Both the position numbers and the translations under genes were made by a program. Of a stretch of 17,115 nt of DNA, positions 1-17,115 are shown one piece after another (position 1 is the first letter of the stretch; each line of letters opens with the position of its first letter). The DNA is from Escherichia coli (lineage in GTDB: Bacteria; Pseudomonadota; Gammaproteobacteria; Enterobacterales; Enterobacteriaceae), in assembly GCF_003334765.1 (NCBI RefSeq), contig NZ_QOWT01000052.1; one strand, given 5' to 3'. The notes below the pieces were generated by a model. That model saw nothing but the letters and a program-made list of their open reading frames with translations, made no database searches and was not told where the DNA came from.

Positions 1-77
1 GTGGCGGCCTCAGTCCGGAACAATTTGAAAACAAGAACCTCGCTTAGGCCTGTGTCCATATTACGTGGGTAGGATCA
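1..77 (-). repeat. Left copy of a perfect 77-bp terminal inverted repeat; reverse complement equals 17039..17115. Likely the terminus of an IS3-family element whose body lies outside the window.
   Basis: Reverse complement of 1..77 is identical to 17039..17115; identity stops at 78 versus 17038. Terminus reads TGATCCTACCCAC...TGGACA, an IS3-family-like end. Confidence 0.6.
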
Positions 78-374: not shown

Positions 375-574
375 ACGAATAATCACACAGCAAATAATAA
401 TGACAAACAAGAATATAACTCAAAAAAATATCCAGAATGATGATATCCTGAATATTTTGCCACTACGAATTAATCATATGAACATAATAATTTGACAATA
501 ACCACGCAAAATGTTAAAGAATTACGAACCTATATAATAGACAAAATCGTAAAATAATAGGCTGGAGATATAAG

Positions 575-2023
575 ATGCTAAAGGGCTTTGATATAACAAA
601 AGCAAAAGCACAAGAAGTAGATACAGAACTACTTAAGCGTAGAATTTCCACTGGAAAAGCCATCGCATTCACAGGTGCAGGCTTCTCACTCGGAACAAAA
701 AATGTACTAGGCTCTACCCCCCCAATGGCTGGAGAGCTAGCTAAGAAACTCAGTTTATTATGTAATCTCGAAGAATCTGAAGATTTAATGTTTGCAGCAG
801 ACGTTGCACTTGAGTACGCAGATAATATTTCAGTATTAGACTTACTTAAAGATAATTACACACTAACATCTGTTTCAGAATGTCATGAAAAAATATGTAA
901 ACTACCCTGGAAAAAATTTTTCACAACAAATTATGATAACTCTATAGAACTTGCCTGTCTGAATATAGGTAAACGTATAGAATCAGTTGACTTATCTTAC
1001 AAACCAACAAATTTTTTAAAAAAAAATAATGTTTGCCTTCATATTAATGGAAAAATTGAAAGTGCTGAACCTGAAGATTTAACCTCCAAAATAAAATTAT
1101 CAGATTCATCATACCTGTCTCCAGATTCATTTGTAAATTCTGATTGGTACTATCACTTCAAAAAAGATCTTGAAACCGCAAGTGCTATCGTATTTATGGG
1201 ATACTCCATGTATGATATGGATGTAAAAAAATTCTTGTTCGAAAATCCAGAGTTACAAGAAAAAACTTACTTCGTTGTAAGAGATGGTGCCGATTTTAAA
1301 GAAATATTCACCCTAAGAAAATATGGACATGTTTTGCCAATTGGGGTGGACAGGTTTTCAGATTTAATGAAGGATGTTCAAAAGCAATCACATGAAGATG
1401 GTGTTATCTTCACAGAAACACTAGTCAAATATGAAGTTTTCGACACACAAACAGACTTTAGAGATATTGATAGTGAGCGATTATTTCTTTACGGTGATTA
1501 TGAAATAGAAAAACTCCATGACTCTATCAGAAGAATAGAAACCATTCCGTACTTTATTAAACGCGATATAATTCCTGTTTGTCTTAACAACATTAAAAAT
1601 AATAATAACATTATTATCACTGGCGATCTGGGAAATGGAAAGTCTATAGTTTTAGAAATGTTAGCTTATGAGTTAACTGTAAATGGTTTTCACACATATA
1701 TATTACGAAATAACGATGGTGATTATGTTTCTGATCTTGATCAAATTATCAAACATGAGGGGACGGCCGTAATTATCATTGATAACTGCTCTAATCATCC
1801 GGGTTTGATAAAACATATTTTTGAAGTTAAAGCTGATAACTTAATTTATGTTTTTGCTGACAGAAACTCAAACGACATAAAATTTAATATTTCTCTTGAT
1901 TTTATAGAGCACAATATAGACTTACTATCTAGTGACGAAATCGCAAGCGCAGTAAAAATCATAGATAATTTATCTACATGGCAAAAATTTTCCGCATTAT
2001 CCACTGAGAGAAAAAAAGATTAG
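575..2023 (+). CDS. SIR2-like (SIR2_2-type) domain fused to a P-loop NTPase domain; N-terminal 482-aa segment of a longer frameshifted gene
   Basis: SIR2_2-like motifs: FTGAGFS, TTNYD, LHINGK, VFMGYSMYDMD. Walker A GDLGNGKS and Walker B-like AVIIIDN. RBS GGAG about 8 nt upstream of the ATG. AT-rich codon usage. Confidence 0.7.
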   Translation: MLKGFDITKAKAQEVDTELLKRRISTGKAIAFTGAGFSLGTKNVLGSTPPMAGELAKKLSLLCNLEESEDLMFAADVALEYADNISVLDLLKDNYTLTSVSECHEKICKLPWKKFFTTNYDNSIELACLNIGKRIESVDLSYKPTNFLKKNNVCLHINGKIESAEPEDLTSKIKLSDSSYLSPDSFVNSDWYYHFKKDLETASAIVFMGYSMYDMDVKKFLFENPELQEKTYFVVRDGADFKEIFTLRKYGHVLPIGVDRFSDLMKDVQKQSHEDGVIFTETLVKYEVFDTQTDFRDIDSERLFLYGDYEIEKLHDSIRRIETIPYFIKRDIIPVCLNNIKNNNNIIITGDLGNGKSIVLEMLAYELTVNGFHTYILRNNDGDYVSDLDQIIKHEGTAVIIIDNCSNHPGLIKHIFEVKADNLIYVFADRNSNDIKFNISLDFIEHNIDLLSSDEIASAVKIIDNLSTWQKFSALSTERKKD

Positions 2024-2301
2024 TATATGAAAAATATGACGCACAGCTATCTCTATTGCTTCTGGGATTGATAAATAGTCCAAATATAAAAACAAAAATC
2101 AAACAACAAACCGATTTAATATATTCCAATCCAGATCATAAAAAGAGCGTCTTCTGCATTTGCATTTGTGAAGTCGCTAATGTAGAACCAACATCAAGTT
2201 TAGTATCAGAAATATCAGGAACTAATGCTATTTATCATACATCACTAAGAAACTCCCCCCCCATTCAATCAAATTTTCAAAGTAAATGGAGCAACTATTA
2301 A
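2008..2301 (+). other. Middle fragment of the SIR2/NTPase gene in the +1 frame between two homopolymer frameshifts
   Basis: This frame is open from 2008 immediately after the A7 run (2011..2017) and ends shortly after the C8 run (2255..2262). Confidence 0.4.
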
Positions 2302-3019
2302 ATCAAAATCAAGCATTCTGTCATTATCTTTACTAAACAATACCTTTAGCGATATTTATGTAAGAGATGTACTCCTTGAAATTGTTGAACGTACTGACTC
2401 AATAAAAGACCAGGATATTGAAATAAAAAAAATATTTAAAGCACTATTGAGATTTCATATAGTTGAAAGAATTTTACCGAAGAATCAATCTGCACTAGAC
2501 AGATATTATGAACAGTTAAAATATAGATGCACATGGTTAATGGATAGCCCTCACTATTGGGTTCAATATGCAATGTGTCGACTATCTTTTTCAGATTATA
2601 ATAGAGCACAAAATTACCTAACCAACGCTTATCAAAAAGCAGAAACAAAAAAAGGAAGTTATCATACTGATAACATTGACACTCAACAGGCTCGTCTATA
2701 TTTAAATCAGTGTTTAGATCATAACAACAGTTCTGAGTGTTATAAACTGTTCGATAAAGCACATGCTCTTCTTGTGAAACTCCCCAATGAAGGAAGAAAG
2801 TTTAGACAAGTTCTGTTATATAAAAAAGTTTTTGATTTAAAATACCAAAGTTTCAGTAAAAAAAACAAAACTGATTTTGAACAGGCATGTAAAAAATTAT
2901 TAGATCAGACAAAACCAGATAATGTTTATCCTATAAATACTAATATGGTAAGATTCATCACCTCTGCTGAAGAGGCATTAATTGAAATATTAAACACTAT
3001 TATGCTAGAGCGAACTTAA
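2264..3019 (+). CDS. C-terminal alpha-helical (possibly TPR-like) segment of the SIR2/NTPase gene; the frame is open from 2264 although the ORF caller starts at 2447
   Basis: Same frame as 575..2023, open from just after the C8 run to the stop at 3019, followed by a strong terminator hairpin. Confidence 0.55.
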   Translation, partial: FNQIFKVNGATIKSKSSILSLSLLNNTFSDIYVRDVLLEIVERTDSIKDQDIEIKKIFKALLRFHIVERILPKNQSALDRYYEQLKYRCTWLMDSPHYWVQYAMCRLSFSDYNRAQNYLTNAYQKAETKKGSYHTDNIDTQQARLYLNQCLDHNNSSECYKLFDKAHALLVKLPNEGRKFRQVLLYKKVFDLKYQSFSKKNKTDFEQACKKLLDQTKPDNVYPINTNMVRFITSAEEALIEILNTIMLERT

Positions 3020-3027
3020 CTGTAAAA

Positions 3028-3053
3028 AGCCACCTCCTGAGGAGGTGGCTTTT
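3028..3053. terminator. Rho-independent terminator hairpin, possibly bidirectional
   Basis: Perfect 10-bp stem AGCCACCTCC / GGAGGTGGCT with a 3-nt loop, followed by TTTT and preceded by AAAA. Confidence 0.65.
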
Positions 3054-3096
3054 CAGAATCCCCCCTATAAGGATGGCAAATGTCATATTCCATTTT

Positions 3097-3468
3097 CTAC
3101 TCTAGCAACTCCATCTGCTGTTCATGTGTTTGTTCCATCTTTTCCTGGTACCTCACATATCGTCTGATAATTTCTTCGTTCCCCCCTACCGTATCAACAA
3201 AGTAACCCCTCGACCAAAAATGGTTTCCCCATAACTTCTTCCCGATATGCAGGAATCGATTGTAGAGTCTGATTGCACTGCGGTCTTTCAGCTGCCCCAT
3301 CAGAGTAGATATTGAGATTTTTGGTAGCACTATTACGACAAGATGCATATGATCTGGCTGTACATTTAACTCCAGAGCCTCGCAATCTTTTATTCCGCAA
3401 AGAATAAAGATGGTTCTGTACAGCTCCTTGCCCAATTTATCCCTCAGAATCCTAAAGCGGTACTTTAG
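3097..3468 (-). CDS. tnpA: IS200/IS605-family Y1 (HUH) transposase TnpA; N-terminus apparently disrupted (in-frame stop upstream of the conserved CKYHIV, no ATG)
   Basis: Minus-strand translation CKYHIVWTLKYR...DHMHLVV (HxH)...FWSRGYFVDTVG (catalytic Y region) matches IS200 TnpA. The ORF caller starts at an internal Met (3435). Confidence 0.7.
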   Translation of the reverse strand, partial: LKYRFRILRDKLGKELYRTIFILCGIKDCEALELNVQPDHMHLVVIVLPKISISTLMGQLKDRSAIRLYNRFLHIGKKLWGNHFWSRGYFVDTVGGNEEIIRRYVRYQEKMEQTHEQQMELLE

Positions 3469-3917
3469 CGTCCAGACTATGTGATATTTGCAACACTAAT
3501 ATACATGTGATGAACTTCTGTAAAGCCCTATATCAGTTTGTCTCCTTTTACTTGTGGTGTGTAAGCAGATATATTCAGACATGGACATTCTTCAGGCTAT
3601 AACCTTACAGGAACAATCACCACCTCCACAAGAGGTGAGGTTTTATTTTACCTGTCACTCCCAAAAGAGTATATTAATACATGAATAATGTCTTAGCATT
3701 CTATTTGGCATTCATATTAATTTAACTTCTGCACCCCTAATATTTCATTACTCTCTTTTGAATGTATGCCTGATACAGTATATGATGTTAAAAACTTAAT
3801 TGACGTTGTGTAAATAGACCCGTTTTGGTTACATACATTTTTTGAGATTCCGGAAAGAATTACCCTGTCCCAAAATCAATACAGTGCTAAATCAGAGATC
3901 TTTGTCTTTCCTGAGAC

Positions 3918-4295
3918 TTCAAAAAAATTCAGCCGGCGTCACGTCATTTAATTATGAATGCGTTCTCTCATGATTATATTTCCTGCGCCAGTAATCGAGT
4001 TTGTCTTGTGCATCTTCCAGTTTTCAGCGCCAGTGATATAAGACGGTAATTCGCCATTTGGATTGTCCGCATCCCCATAACGGTCAAACATCGTGGCGTT
4101 GACACAGTGACAGGAACCAGTGAATGTTCAGACACTCATCCCGCAGACTGCCGTTAAACGATTCAATAAACGGTTTATCTGCCAGCTTTCCGGGGGGCGA
4201 GAAGTCCATGTTCACACCGTGTTCATACGCCCCTTTATCCAGACTTTTGAGATAAACTCGCTGCCGTTGTCACCGCCACGATGTTTGACCGTTAT
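3918..4295 (-). pseudogene. IS3-family (IS2-group-like) orfB C-terminal remnant with frameshift and premature stop
   Basis: Minus-strand frames give GGDNGSEFISK, PGKLADKPFIESFNGSLRDECLNIHWFLSLEDAQDKLDYWRRKYNHERTHS, then stop, then TPAEFF: a DDE/integrase core C-terminus. Confidence 0.55.
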
Positions 4296-4327
4296 TTGCC
4301 ATTTTCATGCCCGCTAAGATACTTTCG

Positions 4328-5111
<784 letters not shown>

Positions 5112-5115
<4 letters not shown>

Positions 5116-5780
5116 AACAGCTCCTCATAGGTACTCAGTGGTCGATGTTCCACCTGACTGACCTGCTGCCAGAGCGGGGCGTGATGCTCCGGCACTGTCT
5201 GCCAGCCAGACGATGCCGGACAGAGGCGATGTGAGGCCACCAGTTTCTCATTACTGTAGATCCGCAACTCGTCATCCAGCGATATTCGTATCGATACTGG
5301 CTGACCACACAGCGCTTCGGGAACGCTGTAACGATTACCACCAACCTCGATATAGCTGTCCCAGGACACATGGCGGATGTCGAAGTAACTGGTATCGAAG
5401 TCCGTATCCGGTAACGGCTGCAGATGTTCCTGCTCCAGCGCGAAGCGCTGTTCCGGCGTTTCTTTGAACTGGCGAAGCTCCCGTTTGTCAGCCACATCGG
5501 CTATCCATTGCTCCAGTAGTTGATTAACATGAGTGAAGCTGTCGAACCTGCGGTACCGGACGAAGAAGTTCTCCTTGAGGTATTTCACCATCCGCTCAAC
5601 CTTACCTTTTGTTCTGGCCCTGCGTGGACGGCATGCCCGTGGCAGGAAGTTATAGTGGTCGGCCAGCAACAGGAATCCGGAGTTGAACACGACTTTCCCG
5701 TTGTTATTCTTCAGCACCGCAGCCTTCTGGTTATCAACCAGCACCGTTTTCACACAACCACCGAATTTGATCCCTGAAAA
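5112..5780 (-). pseudogene. istA: IS21-family istA, 5'-truncated (C-terminal part only)
   Basis: Translation ..GIKFGGCVKTVLVDNQKAAVLKNNNGKVVFN... continues in frame upstream of the called start to a stop near 5780. Confidence 0.7.
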
Positions 5781-9859: not shown

Positions 9860-10109
9860 CTACTGCCAGTTGAGATGACGCCCGGCATCCTGATGCTGAC
9901 TTAAAATACGGATAATAATAATATCTGTATCAGTCTGAATAAAATAAAGCATATGCCGTTCAACGGGCAGTGCGAAGATATCTTCCACCAGTTCAGGCCG
10001 GGGAGTGCCGATATTATTATCACTCATAACCTGAAAAATGCCGGCACCCGTAATACCAGATATCCTCCAGATCCTGACTGGCTTTAGGTGTGAGTTTAAC
10101 GGTTTTCAC
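9860..10109 (-). pseudogene. parE: ParE/RelE-family toxin, apparently frameshifted near 10050..10055
   Basis: GTG start overlaps the parD stop; N-terminal frame reads VKTVKLTPKASQDLEDIWYY.. then stop; a second frame reads ..PELVEDIFALPVERHMLYFIQTDTDIIIIRILSQHQDAGRHL, a ParE-like C-terminus. No ORF of 60 aa or more was called here. Confidence 0.5.
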
Positions 10110-10362
10110 CGGAAGCCCTCGTACCAGCCTTAACTTTTTTCAGGAACGCGTCCTTTTCCCACGCCACAGGTTCGCCGCTGCTCAGGCCTTCTGCCAGTAA
10201 ATCCCGCAGGGCCTGGAGACGTGACTCTGCCTGTTTCTCGCGCAGGAGACGAAGTGACTCGCGAATCACTTCACTCTGAGTACGATAATCACCTGATTCT
10301 ATGAGAGATTCAATGAATTCACGGAGTTCATCTCCGAGATCCACTGTCATTGTTCTGGCCAT
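10096..10362 (-). CDS. parD: ParD-family (ribbon-helix-helix) antitoxin
   Basis: 88 aa, MARTMTVDLGDELREFIESLIESGDYRTQSEVIRESLRLLREKQ...; RBS GAGG upstream; operon with the downstream toxin. Confidence 0.75.
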   Translation of the reverse strand: MARTMTVDLGDELREFIESLIESGDYRTQSEVIRESLRLLREKQAESRLQALRDLLAEGLSSGEPVAWEKDAFLKKVKAGTRASGENR

Positions 10363-10641: not shown

Positions 10642-12579
10642 TTAAAATAAATTATCTAATCCGAGCAAACTTTCTTTTTCCTTTTTTATCATGTTGAGAT
10701 GATTTAGTGATTTTAAATAAATATAATTATACATATCTTCAACCAAGTTTTCTAATACTAGGAAAACCCTGTTTTTTACACCTGCCTGTGTTAATAATTT
10801 ATCTATAAGCATACTGTTTTTATCGTTTATGATTCCATCAGATTTTATTTTATCGAGGCCTGAAATTATCTTTAAACATGAAGGTGTCGTAATTGCATTG
10901 TCAAAAATAATGTCATGCAAAGAGTATGTTGATAATTTTTCTATATCAGAGAAGGCGAGGACATTCAGAATGTTATCATTAAATGGACCGATTGATACAT
11001 CGTGCATAGATTCAAGTTTATTGTTATTTGATTTTCTATCTTTACGTAGTTCTTTATTTTGAACAATAACTCTCGCATCACCGATTAGTTTATAATAGAA
11101 ATTTTCAGCTAATGTGCTCGCTGAAAAATTCTCTTCTTTAAAACCAATCTCTTGCATTAACGGAATGATTAACTCTTCCGTTGTATTTTCCATGTCTATG
11201 TGGTTTAAAAAAACCGCAGTATTCAGCATAATAGAGTTATTTTTTAGTTCCTTTACCAAACTCAGCAATATCTTACTTTTTATACTAGATGCGCTGTTTT
11301 TAATGAATTCAGCCGCATGATACTCTTGAATTGTTTTATGGACAAATGTAAATATTTCGGCGCCATCTCTTCTGATCAAACCTGTGACATCGATATAGTC
11401 ATTAATAAGATCTTCGGCAAAAGTATCAGAATAATTGAGCCCCAAAACTTTAAATGATTTTTTAGTGATATTTTTTAAGTTATCCCATGATAATTGGGAT
11501 GAACTTTTTAGCGATATGTAACATAAAGCACAAAATATTTCTTTTGATTCACTAATTGAGAGGTTTGTTTTTCTATGCCTTTTATAGAAATTTTTTGTTT
11601 TATCATGGCCTTCAAATAGTATATTAAATATTCTATTGTAAAATTCTCTTGCATTTTTAGGCATTGAATCGAGATGCTTTTCACAAACACAAAGCAGTAC
11701 AGCAAGAATTGGAGTATTAATTGAAGAAAGCAATTGTTTATTTTTCTTAAGCGCTGCTATAAGTTGATCAGCTGACTCCTTTGGTAAAAAATTACCTATT
11801 ATGGAAAAAACATCTTTCTCTGTTAGTGGTTCAACATGATAATTATTTATTCCTGCAGTAGTGCATATTTCTGTTCCAGGCCGAGACGTTGATATTAATT
11901 GAGTCTGAAAAGAATCATTTAAATGCAATATTTCTTTTAAAATAGTTTCTCTAATATCAGGGGATATTTCATCAAAACCATCTAGTAGTAATATAATTTT
12001 TTTACTTTTCAGTAACCCCTTTAGGTCAGCATTAGTGCAGTTTAATTCGAGAGTAGTTAATGTTTTTATTAAACTATCTTGTATTGAATTGTTTTCCAAG
12101 TTTCTAAGATCAAAAAAGAATGGTATTTTATTAATTTTTGAATTATTACTTAAAATAGCTAGGAATATTTTTCTTAAAATTGTTGTTTTCCCTTGTCCAG
12201 CAGCGCCAATTATATTTAATATATTTTCATTTTGAATACAAAAATCATTATTAATTAAAAGGTCTTCATTTGTACGGTTGTTTTTTACCGTGAGTGGATG
12301 ATAAAATTCATCTATAAAAGCATCATCATTTAAATTATATAAAGTTCTTACTGACAAGTATCTTTTAATACATAAATCAAAATAATGAGTGAAAGTATCT
12401 TTCTTCAATATTTGTTCAATAAGTACTTTCGCATTATCAGTTCCATGTTTCCACTTTTGTGAAACTACTGAATTTAACAATTCGTAAGTTGATTTTGTTA
12501 AAGATTCACTAAAAGTTTCTACCATTTTATTGGTGGCCACAATACCCAGTGCAGCAGCAGATATTGTTAACGGTTCCAT
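10642..12579 (-). CDS. NACHT-domain NTPase (bacterial NACHT / STAND family), 645 aa
   Basis: Walker A GAAGQGKTT; NACHT-type Walker B ILLLDGFDE; sensor-1 ISTSRP; RBS AAGGAG 6 nt upstream of the ATG; AT-rich. Confidence 0.85.
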   Translation of the reverse strand: MEPLTISAAALGIVATNKMVETFSESLTKSTYELLNSVVSQKWKHGTDNAKVLIEQILKKDTFTHYFDLCIKRYLSVRTLYNLNDDAFIDEFYHPLTVKNNRTNEDLLINNDFCIQNENILNIIGAAGQGKTTILRKIFLAILSNNSKINKIPFFFDLRNLENNSIQDSLIKTLTTLELNCTNADLKGLLKSKKIILLLDGFDEISPDIRETILKEILHLNDSFQTQLISTSRPGTEICTTAGINNYHVEPLTEKDVFSIIGNFLPKESADQLIAALKKNKQLLSSINTPILAVLLCVCEKHLDSMPKNAREFYNRIFNILFEGHDKTKNFYKRHRKTNLSISESKEIFCALCYISLKSSSQLSWDNLKNITKKSFKVLGLNYSDTFAEDLINDYIDVTGLIRRDGAEIFTFVHKTIQEYHAAEFIKNSASSIKSKILLSLVKELKNNSIMLNTAVFLNHIDMENTTEELIIPLMQEIGFKEENFSASTLAENFYYKLIGDARVIVQNKELRKDRKSNNNKLESMHDVSIGPFNDNILNVLAFSDIEKLSTYSLHDIIFDNAITTPSCLKIISGLDKIKSDGIINDKNSMLIDKLLTQAGVKNRVFLVLENLVEDMYNYIYLKSLNHLNMIKKEKESLLGLDNLF

Positions 12580-12867
12580 TTTTGCTCCTTCAAAAAATTA
12601 TAAAGTGACTGTCTAAATTCATTTAGAATAAAAAGGATAATTACTGATTCTTGATATGGAAGTTATAAAGTGGTTCATATTAAGAAATTCCAAAACCTAA
12701 AGTGTTTGTAACTATATAAAAAATAGATAATAAATCAAGGTTGTTGACATAAAATTTGACACGACGAACTGAAACTCAATGTGGACTAAGGAAAGCACTT
12801 ACCCTATTGTAAAGCATTGATTTAAAATGTTATTTTTTATATTTAACATAATCTTTGTTATGCGCAC

Positions 12868-13570
12868 TAAGGGTGTAACAGCAAAGTTGTAATGTCCGCC
12901 TTGGGCTAAGTTAAGATGTCCGGCGTGTATAATCAAGTAAGGATTACCATGACGGCTCTCGCAGCGGAGTTTTTCACTTTGGATGAAGTTAACCGACTCA
13001 AGATTATTCAGGACGTCATCGACCGGCGTCTGACAACACAGATGGCAGCGCAGCGGCTTGGTATCTCCGACCGCCAGTGCCGTCGTCTGCTTGCGCGTTA
13101 TCGTGAAGATGGTCCGCTTGGCATGACCAGCCGCGTGTCGAAATCACTCACTGTGCAGTACGACAAAGTGCTTTACCTCATTGAAGACAATGAGTTCAGT
13201 CGTCGGGCGATTGGTAAATACATTGATGTCTGGCATTACCCTGACGGACATAAAGAGCTCCGGCTTAATGGCGTATCAATTCCCTACTCCACCTATGACA
13301 AACTGTCTGAAATCGATCAGGGTGCCATTGTGGACAATAAACGTCTTGGGCGTGCGCTGGAGATGGCGCAACTTGTGCAGGCCGAACGGGATAATAACCG
13401 GTCACAATCAGTGCCATCCGGTGACGGCCCTTCACGCAGGCGCAAAGCCCCTACGACGAAGAAATCCCAGCGTTCTTTGGACCAGGACGATATGTTCAAT
13501 GCACTTGTAAAACTTCAGACACGAGCTGAGGAGATTTTTGGTGAACGCAACCAAAAATGATGTTTTGATA
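12868..13570 (+). mobile_element. ISNCY/IS481-like IS remnant with an internally deleted transposase gene
   Basis: Left-end sequence AAGGGTGTA... is shared with the full copy at about 15675; the gene lacks the catalytic core. Confidence 0.5.
12949..13560 (+). pseudogene. Internally deleted DDE transposase derivative: N-terminal HTH fused in frame to the C-terminal domain (about 280 aa of catalytic core missing)
   Basis: Residues ..NRLKIIQDVIDRRL..GPLGM and ..LTVQYDKVLYLIEDNEFSRRAIGKYIDVWHYPDGHKELRLNG.. align to both ends of the 415-aa transposase at 15794..17041. Extended -10 TGTATAAT and RBS AAGGA precede the ATG at 12949. Confidence 0.6.
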
Positions 13571-13611
13571 CGAACATTTCAATGGTCAATAGATAGAGTG
13601 GAGATGGGCAG

Positions 13612-14658
13612 ATGATAACGTTTTCTATGGATGAAAGTGGCTATACGGGTTATGACTTACTCCACAAAGAGCAAAAATTCCAAGGCGCGTCATCAATATT
13701 AATAAACCATGATGACGCCAGTCGTCTGATAAAAGAATATTTCCCCAAACTTCAAGCCGATGAATTGAAGTACAGCTCGCTGAAAAGAAGAGATTCCAAC
13801 CGCAAGCCATTATTTGAATTGCAAAAGCATCTCTTATCTAATTACCCATGTATAACATGCGTAGGTGATAAACGCTTTTTACTAATTCTTATGTTCATCG
13901 ATTATGCTGTTGAACCATTCTATTATGATTTTGGGATTAATCTTTATGAGGATGGCGGTAACTTCTCAATGGCATCAATGGTGTATTACGTTGGACCAGC
14001 GTATTATGGCTCTGCCTTTGATGATGTTCTGCTTCAGTTTCAAAATGCTATGAAAGAAAAAACATTAGATTCAGTGAGTTTGCTAATAAGCAAAATAAGG
14101 AGGCTTGACTGGCAAAGGTTAAAAGAGTTTTTTGGTCCTTTGGCATTTAACCACCCAGATTGTATTGATGCCATCATGACTGATGGAATTAGCACTGATG
14201 CCTCATTTACTATTTTAAATGCATTAATTTCTCGCACGGAAATGATGTCCTCTGGAGAGTATGCAATTGAGCATGATCGTTCTAAAAATCTGCTAACTTA
14301 CAATGAACGCCTTAACTTTTTGATCAATTGTGATAAGGAAGGAGAGTTTAAACATTCCGAGATAGCAACTATCTCATTCCCACTAAACCTTAAAAAAGTC
14401 TATCAAATTGATTCGAAAGAAAGCCCAAGCGTGCAATTGTGTGATGTTCTTATAGGTGCATGTATTGAATCAGTTTATCAATTAATGGACTCTAAGGTAC
14501 TCAATCAAAATTCCGTTCTTTCACTTTACCAAGATAGCCAGTTAATACATTTCATACCTGATATAGATTTTGAAGGACAGAAAAAATTTAGGAAAGGCAG
14601 TCAAAGTGAGGAGTATCTTACGTTTATTCAAAATGAAATCTACTCTAGTAAACTTTAA
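13612..14658 (+). CDS. DUF3800-like protein (uncharacterised), 348 aa
   Basis: N-terminal FSMDESGYTG (DESG motif) and C-terminal VQLCDVLIGA (QxxD-like motif), as recalled for DUF3800; RBS GGAG; AT-rich. Confidence 0.6.
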   Translation: MITFSMDESGYTGYDLLHKEQKFQGASSILINHDDASRLIKEYFPKLQADELKYSSLKRRDSNRKPLFELQKHLLSNYPCITCVGDKRFLLILMFIDYAVEPFYYDFGINLYEDGGNFSMASMVYYVGPAYYGSAFDDVLLQFQNAMKEKTLDSVSLLISKIRRLDWQRLKEFFGPLAFNHPDCIDAIMTDGISTDASFTILNALISRTEMMSSGEYAIEHDRSKNLLTYNERLNFLINCDKEGEFKHSEIATISFPLNLKKVYQIDSKESPSVQLCDVLIGACIESVYQLMDSKVLNQNSVLSLYQDSQLIHFIPDIDFEGQKKFRKGSQSEEYLTFIQNEIYSSKL

Positions 14659-14663
14659 AAAAA

Positions 14664-14684
14664 GGCTCTGAAAATCAGAACCTT
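14664..14684. terminator. Imperfect hairpin between the convergent genes (possible bidirectional terminator)
   Basis: GGCTCTGA-AAA-TCAGAACC stem with one mismatch, A-run upstream. Confidence 0.3.
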
Positions 14685-14893
14685 ATCGCACCACCAGACA
14701 TAGAAATGATTCGTGAAGCTATTTTATACAGAACCAAAAACACAAAGGCCAAAACAGTCATGATATCTAATACCATAGGCATTACCTCCACTAACGTATT
14801 CAAGACAAACGCTTTATACCCGCATCAGTCCGTAGACAGGCATCTGTTCGTCAGTTTGTGGATTTCTATGGGTGGTGAGACCGGGTAGAGACA

Positions 14894-15538
14894 TCATACC
14901 TGTTTTCTTAGAAGCTGGTCAATATAGCTGATCGTGTGAAATTCACGTTCGATTTTCATACAAACATTTGGCAACTGTTCGATAAGAAAGTTTTCATCGA
15001 AGCGATCTAGAAGGTACGTGAGGGTAATAGTATCAATTTTATTCAATTTTCTATGTAAAACTGAAGAACGCCTCACAAAATCGTTTTTCCTTAACTCTTG
15101 AATAACATCGATCAAAATAGGGTTGAATAATTCTTTTTCTGGAAAGGACTTGTAAATTTTCGAATCAATAATTTGAGAAGGATCTAAGCGGTTAATTAAA
15201 TTATTACTGCTAACTATGTAGCACTTATCAATCATCAAACCTTCCGTTTTGCAACGGTCTAAATCACAAGCGTTTATTATACATTCTTTAAATACAACAT
15301 GTCGCAGGCTCCCGCCTCTAAAAAGGACTCCTCTTAATAAAGAGGATTGGAAAAGACTGCCAGTAAAGTTACACCATTTCAATGAAGCACCAATAAAAGA
15401 CGTGTTCGTGAATTTTGACTGAAAAAAATTTGAATGGTAACTGTGTGTCTTATTGAAATTTTTATTTATAAAATTCCTACTCGCAACATCACGATTATTG
15501 TAGCTGAAAGCATTTTTGCTCTTCTTATTCCTTGCCAT
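14894..15538 (-). CDS. Pentapeptide-repeat protein: N-terminal pentapeptide-repeat region plus a C-terminal domain of unknown function, 214 aa
   Basis: Residues about 20..95 show a 5-residue periodicity (RNFIN KNFNK .. SNFFQ SKFTN TSFIG ASLKW CNFTG SLFQS SLLRG VLFRG GSLRH VVFKE) with F/L at the centre position. Confidence 0.6.
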   Translation of the reverse strand: MARNKKSKNAFSYNNRDVASRNFINKNFNKTHSYHSNFFQSKFTNTSFIGASLKWCNFTGSLFQSSLLRGVLFRGGSLRHVVFKECIINACDLDRCKTEGLMIDKCYIVSSNNLINRLDPSQIIDSKIYKSFPEKELFNPILIDVIQELRKNDFVRRSSVLHRKLNKIDTITLTYLLDRFDENFLIEQLPNVCMKIEREFHTISYIDQLLRKQV

Positions 15539-17041: not shown

Positions 17042-17115
17042 TCCTACCCACGTAATATGGACACAGGCCTAAGCGAGGTTCTTGTTTTCAAATTGTTCCG
17101 GACTGAGGCCGCCAC
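17039..17115 (+). repeat. Right copy of the 77-bp terminal inverted repeat (IS3-family-like terminus)
   Basis: Identical to the reverse complement of 1..77. Confidence 0.6.

Follow-up and report, generated by a model that had tools for sequence, protein, structure and literature searches.

Homopolymer frameshifts in a predicted Avs5-family defense gene on an Escherichia coli IncF plasmid

Results and Discussion

The locus and its reading frames

The window analyzed in this report is a stretch of 17,115 nt of E. coli DNA. Positions 575..3019 on its (+) strand span 2445 nt, a length equal to that of the intact gene for an 814-aa "SIR2 family protein" on related E. coli IncF plasmids. Alignment with the copies on related IncF plasmids shows that this stretch and the intact gene are colinear. 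In the window, the gene is broken after codon 481. The features that matter for the following discussion are these:

575..3019, (+): the whole remnant of the gene, assigned to the Avs5 family (SIR2-STAND) from plasmid alignment, PDB 9JAP and Pfam
575..2023, (+): readable ORF of 482 aa, ending in ...STERKKD and then TAG at 2021..2023; identical product WP_001573202.1
2011..2017, (+): A7 run; intact alleles have A8, which makes this a 1-nt deletion and the primary inactivating frameshift, inherited (from allele alignment)
2017..2262, (+): native residues R482..P563, 82 codons, presently in frame 1
2255..2262, (+): C8 run; a 1-nt insertion that is private to the window and lies 3′ of the stop (from allele alignment)
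2264..3019, (+): native residues F564..T814 and the stop codon, in frame 2; C-terminal helical sensor region
3025..3053, (+): GC-rich hairpin AAAAGCCACCTCC-TGA-GGAGGTGGCTTTT, 6 nt past the native stop (read from the sequence and RNAfold)

The original prediction had placed the two homopolymers at 2011..2017 and 2255..2262 and had described a gene split into three segments that are open only in the expected order. Both runs are located as claimed, and a frame map confirms the layout, with all other combinations closed by many stops. With frames numbered by position mod 3, frame 2 runs without a stop from the ATG at 575 to the TAG at 2021..2023, frame 1 has its only open stretch at 2008-2301, and frame 2 opens again from just 5′ of the C run and continues to the TAA at 3017..3019. 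Outside of these three segments, stops are abundant in each frame; frame 2, for example, contains eight within 2024-2248. Two details had to be corrected. The middle segment counts 82 codons instead of 85. The shift at the A run, which lacks a base, is −1 relative to the native frame and not +1, and the C run undoes it by +1.

The 482-aa ORF retains the SIR2 domain with the asparagine of the catalytic motif (N119, nt 929..931), the Walker A sequence GNGKS (1631..1645) and the Walker B residue D403. Residues 482-814 are missing from this product. The hairpin downstream of the native stop folds at −23.5 kcal/mol (RNAfold) and is likely the transcription terminator of the gene. A consensus terminator scan did not call this hairpin, owing to its rule on T runs: only four T's follow the stem.

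Intact relatives and in silico repair

A megablast search with positions 500..3100 as the query against PLSDB and RefSeq complete genomes returned no full-length copies outside E. coli IncF-type plasmids; eight copies are in PLSDB and nine in RefSeq complete genomes, with partial overlap between the two sets. In eight of the copies read, the region is a single CDS of 2445 nt that is annotated as "SIR2 family protein" and codes for 814 aa. Comparing tract lengths with related plasmids had been suggested as a check on the two frameshifts. Alignment to 12 related plasmid copies identifies A8 at 2011 and C7 at 2255 as the intact allele, to be compared with A7 and C8 in the window, where the gene is indeed frameshifted. 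Since intact alleles were compared directly, we can conclude that the observation is real and not a chance pattern.

Repair of both tracts affords an 814-aa ORF with three amino acid differences to WP_228340204. The repaired protein is identical to P0032, which is found intact in two public assemblies or contigs (L021 and L022). Over its full 17,115 nt, the window shows four differences to pANT_425 (two SNPs, C8/C7 and, at 2891, A6/A7) and likewise four to AF58 plasmid 2; the comparison with pB16EC0481-1 reveals one difference in 12,558 nt. One of these differences, at 10787, is a private nonsynonymous SNP, which changes residue 598 of a NACHT gene from leucine to glutamine (L598Q). The lineage of the window has therefore had time for genuine change.

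Assignment to the Avs5 family

The label "SIR2/NTPase" given to the gene from sequence was correct, and can be sharpened to Avs5, or SIR2-STAND, with the help of Pfam and PDB 9JAP. In the repaired protein, Pfam recognizes SIR2_2 at residues 114-230 (E = 1.4e-9) and nSTAND3 / nSTAND_NTPase5 at residues 329-417. A phmmer search of the PDB sequences with the repaired protein matches the EfAvs5 filament (PDB 9JAP) over residues 16-782 with E = 8.5e-140, including the region that is out of frame in the window. In the alignment, the TTNYDN motif (N119) falls opposite the N141-containing motif of EfAvs5; it is invariant in 12 homologues, and GNGKS (K356) and D403 align with the Walker A and B residues of EfAvs5. 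By this homology, the protein is assigned to the Avs5 family (AVAST type 5, SIR2-STAND), a single-gene anti-phage system, here carried on an IncF plasmid. PADLOC-DB v2 returned no match to an Avs model and only weak matches to ThsA SIR2 (E = 3e-9), and NCBIfam contains no family match for the protein. The accessions of the 814-aa protein are also absent from the supplementary tables of the Avs5 clade paper (PMC12931631). Homologues with 40-86% identity are found in Enterobacterales, Vibrio, Shewanella and others. These homologues are uninterrupted ORFs, and the uninterrupted form is also the commonest form of the gene.

The closest point of reference is EfAvs5 from Escherichia fergusonii (PDB 9JAP; PMC11897194). 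The homology to this protein is nearly full length, and the two share the domain order SIR2, NOD and a short helical C-terminal sensor, in addition to the aligned TTNYDN motif, Walker A GNGKS and Walker B aspartate. In contrast to EfAvs5, which is a clearly diverged chain of 869 aa including the tag, the plasmid gene codes for 814 aa, is carried on IncF replicons and, in the window, is broken after codon 481. The PaAvs5 and EcAvs5 clades, among the four published clades of Avs5 (PMC12931631), have the same Sir2-STAND single-gene architecture.

Previous work on EfAvs5 has established that defense is abolished by the SIR2 mutation N141A, by Walker mutations or by deletion of the C-terminal sensor, and that the wild-type protein is toxic on induction (PMC11897194). 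Deletion of the last 17 residues of PaAvs5-1 also abolishes immunity (PMC12931631). Because C-terminal deletions eliminate defense by both EfAvs5 and PaAvs5-1, the 482-aa product is predicted to be inactive and, by analogy, should be non-defensive. This product contains the SIR2 NADase domain and the P-loop core, and lacks the rest of the NOD module and the entire C-terminal sensor.

The A7 deletion is an inherited null allele

The 482-aa product is not peculiar to the window. Exactly this protein is recorded on 157 contigs and is listed in 331 blocks of the assembly collection; in pANT_425 from Brazil it appears as WP_001573202.1. At the DNA level, we found A7 in two complete plasmids (Brazil and UK) and in 10 further assemblies, which are all of the 10 places sampled among those that carry the 482-aa product (10/10). 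All 13 of the A7 copies read on the SNP background of the window share the SNP 1061A, and the two intact copies on this same background (L021 and L022) have A8. Because of its linkage to 1061A on a background that also includes these A8 copies, A7 must be an inherited allele. The same deletion also occurs in L020 on a 1061G background, where it arose separately. A7 is not an artifact, and the gene is dead regardless of the C8 run.

A sequence of events follows from these alleles. The ancestral gene is an uninterrupted ORF of 814 codons, in which the tract at 2011 is A8 and that at 2255 is C7. On the 1061A background, replication slippage dropped one A (A8 to A7), with a TAG two codons later that limits the product to 482 aa. 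This null allele was then passed on and is now common. Later, in the lineage of the window, a C would have been added to the C7 run 238 nt downstream. Loss of Avs5 was probably tolerated or even favored, given that Avs5 is an NAD-depleting abortive-infection effector with toxicity on overexpression.

Recurrent hits in other isolates

The copies on the 1061A background form a stepwise series in which the window is one step away from the allele with A7 only:

Intact: L021 and L022
A7 only: L028 and L034; a 320-aa downstream ORF is found on 58 contigs
A7 and an extra A at 2891: L002 and eight more; a 288-aa ORF is found on 127 contigs
A7, A7 at 2891 and A9 to A8 at 1018: L003
A7 and C8: the window

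The intact allele on this background, the copies with A7 only and the layered further hits bear out the suggestion in the original prediction that a defense gene had been inactivated recently. The additional tracts that are unchanged in the window and altered elsewhere are listed below together with disruptions seen in single plasmids:

717..723, (+): second C7 run (codons T48-P49-P50); C6 or C8 in other isolates, which forces the gene call to start from M51
1018..1026, (+): A9 run; A8 in AF58 plasmid 2, L017, L018 and L020
2425..2432, (+): A8 run; A7 in L017-L020
2891..2896, (+): A6 run; A7 in pANT_425, AF58 plasmid 2 and 8 of 10 sampled contigs with A7 at 2011
Run at 2647: A7 to A6 in pRHB09-C22_2
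Runs A6 at 1160 and A8 at 2858: changes inferred from truncated products
IS100 insertion in the gene: pRHB08-C09_2

Across other isolates, this amounts to six further runs with ±1 changes in DNA that was read, two changes inferred from truncated products, and the IS100 insertion. The change from A6 to A7 at 2891 is an alternative second hit in the sister lineage. The variant with A8 at 1018 is also widespread, with its 168-aa product on 145 contigs. Several tracts have changed on more than one SNP background: the A8 run at 2011 on two, the A9 run at 1018 on two, and the C7 run at 717 on three and in both directions. In addition, truncation at codon 482 is also seen in an orthologue with 85% identity, and other orthologues have their start at the equivalent of M212. 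From this recurrence and from the truncated orthologue we conclude that the tracts are true slippage hot spots. Among 14 good-quality complete plasmids, four carry a disrupted gene, by way of three independent primary events. The extended sample of disrupted alleles was located by searching for truncated products and is therefore biased to broken copies.

Similar events have been described for Salmonella, where A/T runs of at least 8 nt are mutable, with mutations at 12.3% of such loci (PMC8538453). The gene discussed here shares with such homopolymer-slippage pseudogenes of Enterobacteriaceae the recurrent, lineage-inherited ±1 changes in A/T runs of 8-9 nt that inactivate accessory genes. 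It differs in that a poly-C run is also hit, and in that many tracts of one gene are hit across the population.

Origin of the C8 insertion

The C8 insertion differs from the A7 deletion in that it is confined to the window. Every other good-quality copy has C7 at 2255, one poor assembly has C6, and C8 itself did not turn up among about 40 copies besides the window. A C8 allele would give a specific ORF of 81 aa, or of 77 aa when started at the second TTG; by exact match, a collection of 15 billion proteins contains neither. The insertion leaves the product unchanged, because translation already ends at the TAG at 2021..2023. Located after this stop, the additional C would be selectively invisible.

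The idea that the frameshifts are sequencing errors at homopolymers, with one or both tract lengths misjudged in the consensus and the gene intact in the cell, therefore has to be considered separately for the two tracts. Both changes do fall within homopolymers. Runs of eight G or C are a typical site of residual consensus error in long-read, 454 or Ion Torrent data. The one copy with C6 at this same tract, CP061263 (L012), exemplifies an error-ridden assembly with at least 12 1-nt deletions in this gene. For A7, the explanation fails on the 157 contigs with the 482-aa product and on the occurrence of the deletion in many independent assemblies with linkage to a SNP. For C8, the uniqueness of the variant among about 40 copies and the missing diagnostic ORFs keep the explanation alive. 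On the other side, the window shows no other homopolymer discrepancy in 17 kb relative to three near-identical plasmids, all complete, where an error-prone consensus should show several. Overall, an artifact at one or both tracts is possible, and we regard it as the less probable account.

Slippage of poly-C in this gene does occur in nature, since several independent assemblies, which represent three SNP backgrounds, have C6 or C8 in place of the sister C7 run at 717. We lean slightly toward C8 as a real second hit in an already dead gene, over a single residual consensus error. The second hit is a tentative step, because C8 appears in no other copy and because a G/C run of eight is such a typical error site.

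Decay, switching or recoding

In the window, 575..3019 is very probably a recently formed and still decaying pseudogene, an ordinary one, of an already known defense family (Avs5). The original prediction had also raised slipped-strand phase variation. Under this alternative, the homopolymers would form a contingency switch by which a costly NADase defense gene goes off, and on again, at high frequency. Phase-variable poly-G/C tracts in Type III mod genes of Haemophilus, Neisseria and Campylobacter are the familiar examples. The locus resembles them in that a defense-related gene is switched off by ±1 changes in intragenic homopolymers whose length is polymorphic among relatives. The recurrent change of the same tracts across SNP backgrounds and among close isolates, and the orthologues that are truncated at codon 482 or called from the equivalent of M212, would fit such a switch. 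So would the variants with C6 and C8 at 717, in which all other tracts are intact.

Base composition bears on this alternative in two ways. With a GC content of 31.5%, the gene is poorer in GC than the remainder of the window (about 44%). It is also rich in lysine, with 73 Lys codons of which 64 are AAA. It contains 16 homopolymers of at least 6 nt. As an AT-rich and Lys-rich gene with this many runs, it may simply be prone to slippage. In a synonymous-codon shuffle, the six observed A runs of at least 7 nt compare with a mean of 4.3 (P = 0.16); the number of A runs thus fits the codon usage and is what Lys-rich, AAA-biased coding predicts, which argues against a selected switch. The two C7 runs are unexpected by the same procedure (shuffle mean 0.06, P = 0.0006). 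In orthologues from Enterobacter, Klebsiella and Pectobacterium, the codons for these two prolines are CCA CCN. None of the four orthologues examined has the C tracts (0/4), and one of them has the A8 run at 2011. The two C7 runs are the main support for the contingency-gene reading, to which we attach a low probability.

Other observations weigh against a switch. E. coli is mismatch-repair proficient, and the tracts in classical contingency loci are as long as or longer than 7-9 nt. The tracts in this gene, with 7-9 nt, are at or below that length and lack conservation in orthologues. Variation affects at least six different tracts in the copies read, besides the two inferred ones and the IS100 insertion, which describes diffuse decay rather than one switch. 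In contrast to contingency loci, the tracts here are not only shorter but many and unconserved, and off alleles gain further hits. The weightiest point is that two or three frameshifts each have accumulated in the window, L002, L003, L017, L018 and L020; such haplotypes show that the gene is not kept repairable. In the window in particular, the second shift means that a single-step reversion cannot restore the ORF. This diffuse pattern of many tracts and many hits indicates irreversible decay at slippage hot spots, and not phase variation or recoding. Phase variation as a working switch is thus unlikely. We consider it similarly improbable that evolution has made the Avs5 allele of E. coli IncF plasmids a mutational on/off gene through its two lineage-specific poly-C runs (codons 48-50 and 561-563) together with several A8-A9 runs. 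If this reading were true, a costly, self-toxic NADase would be shed, and perhaps regained, at elevated rates, and plasmids would represent a standing mix of armed and disarmed copies.

Programmed recoding would let the cell still make the full-length protein, by a −1 slip on A_AAA_AAA and a +1 slip on CCC_CCC_A, by either the ribosome or RNA polymerase. The A run in the zero frame is formally a slippery heptamer, where a −1 slip would give the native ...ERKKRLV..., and a +1 slip of the P-site tRNA-Pro at CCC-A would continue into the native ...SPPFNQ..., as read from the sequence. However, RNA folding identified no stimulatory structure 3′ of either site (z = +0.84 and +1.59 relative to shuffles), and two independent rare events would be needed. 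The ancestral and commonest form of the gene is moreover an uninterrupted ORF, and the positions of the frameshifts are unconserved and differ between lineages. We consider this mechanism extremely improbable.

Implications and minor observations

Returning to the gene as a decaying pseudogene, the 482-aa "SIR2 family protein" and the small ORFs 3′ of it should be annotated as fragments of one dead Avs5 gene. Neither a working defense system nor separate genes should be counted here. In public assemblies, frameshifted products occur about as often as intact ones. Because of this frequency, and because four of 14 plasmids carry a disrupted gene, censuses of defense systems on E. coli plasmids that are based on domain hits may overcount functional Avs5. 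That the gene is lost repeatedly agrees with the view of NAD-depleting abortive-infection genes as costly cargo, without proving it. The only mildly unusual points about this locus are the frequency with which plasmid Avs5 is lost by homopolymer slippage and the two lineage-specific poly-C runs.

Two candidate readings were rejected along the way. A 190-aa C-terminal ORF (2447..3019) on eight contigs was considered as a marker for C8. The four copies read (L017-L020), which represent all eight, carry the change from A8 to A7 at 2425 instead. The interpretation of the two shifts in the window as a compensating pair was discarded as well: with a TAG two codons past the A7 run, no +1 shift further downstream can rescue translation. 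The restored total length would then be a coincidence of −1 followed by +1.

As a side observation, a −1 followed by a +1 with exact restoration of the length does resemble compensation, and the sister lineage has also acquired a +1 after the same −1; these are two cases, and the coincidence is not significant.

Poly-C runs of the Avs5 gene

The Avs5 gene, with a GC content of 31.5%, holds two poly-C runs that are both C7 in the intact allele:

717..723, 5' poly-C run
2255..2262, 3' poly-C run

Both runs encode Thr/Ser-Pro-Pro in the form xCC-CCC-CCA, and a shuffle of synonymous codons within the gene gave a probability of 0.0006 for two such runs. A C run was not found in any of the four Avs5 orthologues compared, which encode the same Pro-Pro pair.

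The 5' run varies in length among contigs from other isolates (L037-L043). The equivalent of 717..723 reads C6 in two of these contigs and C8 in four, and the changes are spread over three SNP backgrounds. All other tracts are intact in these contigs. With C6 or C8 at this position, gene callers pick M51 as the start codon, and the resulting 764-residue product does not contain the GAGFS motif. A further record, L019, carries an in-frame C8 at the 5' run, which is made by a T48P substitution.

Avs5 copies and orthologues in other records

Three Avs5 orthologues from other lineages (P0118, P0103 and P0104; 81-85% identity) either end at codon 482, just as the product of the window does, or begin at the equivalent of M212. 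These protein products suggest that slippage may have occurred in parallel at the orthologous A runs. In L013 (plasmid pRHB08-C09_2, CP057963.1), the Avs5 gene carried by the window was inactivated independently and by another route, the insertion of IS100, an IS21-family element, which breaks the gene after approximately codon 510. The appearance of real homopolymer error was gauged with L012 (CP061263.1) as a control. This record contains at least 12 single-base deletions inside the 2.4-kb Avs5 gene, its annotation is almost absent, and it has the look of long reads assembled without polishing.

An intact homologue with 86% identity was also observed on a 3.9-kb contig (L023) of a myxozoan genome assembly labelled Thelohanellus kitauei (GCA_000827895.1), where it adjoins a phage P2 GpU gene. 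This homologue is almost certainly bacterial contamination of the assembly.

Genetic surroundings of Avs5

Two sets of mobile-element sequences lie near the Avs5 gene:

3097..3480, minus strand, IS200/IS605 tnpA, converging on the Avs5 gene
3952..5765, minus strand, integrase-core fragment plus IS21-like remnants of istB/istA, carrying frameshifts and internal stops

The tnpA gene begins 78 nt past the Avs5 stop, just beyond a hairpin at 3025..3053, and is itself frameshifted in some relatives. Since the lesions in the integrase-core, istB and istA remnants are common to all relatives compared, and unchanged among them, these remnants are old, genuine pseudogenes rather than errors.

On a larger scale, positions 1..60 and 17056..17115 are perfect 60-nt inverted repeats, and both are termini of IS3-family elements. 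The window therefore corresponds to the stretch between two IS3 copies in inverted orientation, a module resembling a composite transposon whose cargo comprises Avs5, a RepB replicon, parDE, a NACHT protein and a DUF3800 protein. Within this cargo lie a toxin-antitoxin pair and, between ISNCY fragments, a second defence-like cluster:

9860..10109, minus strand, RelE/ParE-family toxin gene, frameshifted
10096..10362, minus strand, ParD antitoxin gene, intact, overlapping the toxin gene
10642..15538, second defence-like cluster
10642..12579, minus strand, NACHT-domain STAND protein, 645 residues, intact
13612..14658, DUF3800 protein
14894..15538, minus strand, pentapeptide-repeat protein

With its partner toxin gene frameshifted, the ParD antitoxin is an orphan. 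The NACHT gene of the window carries a private L598Q change at position 10787.
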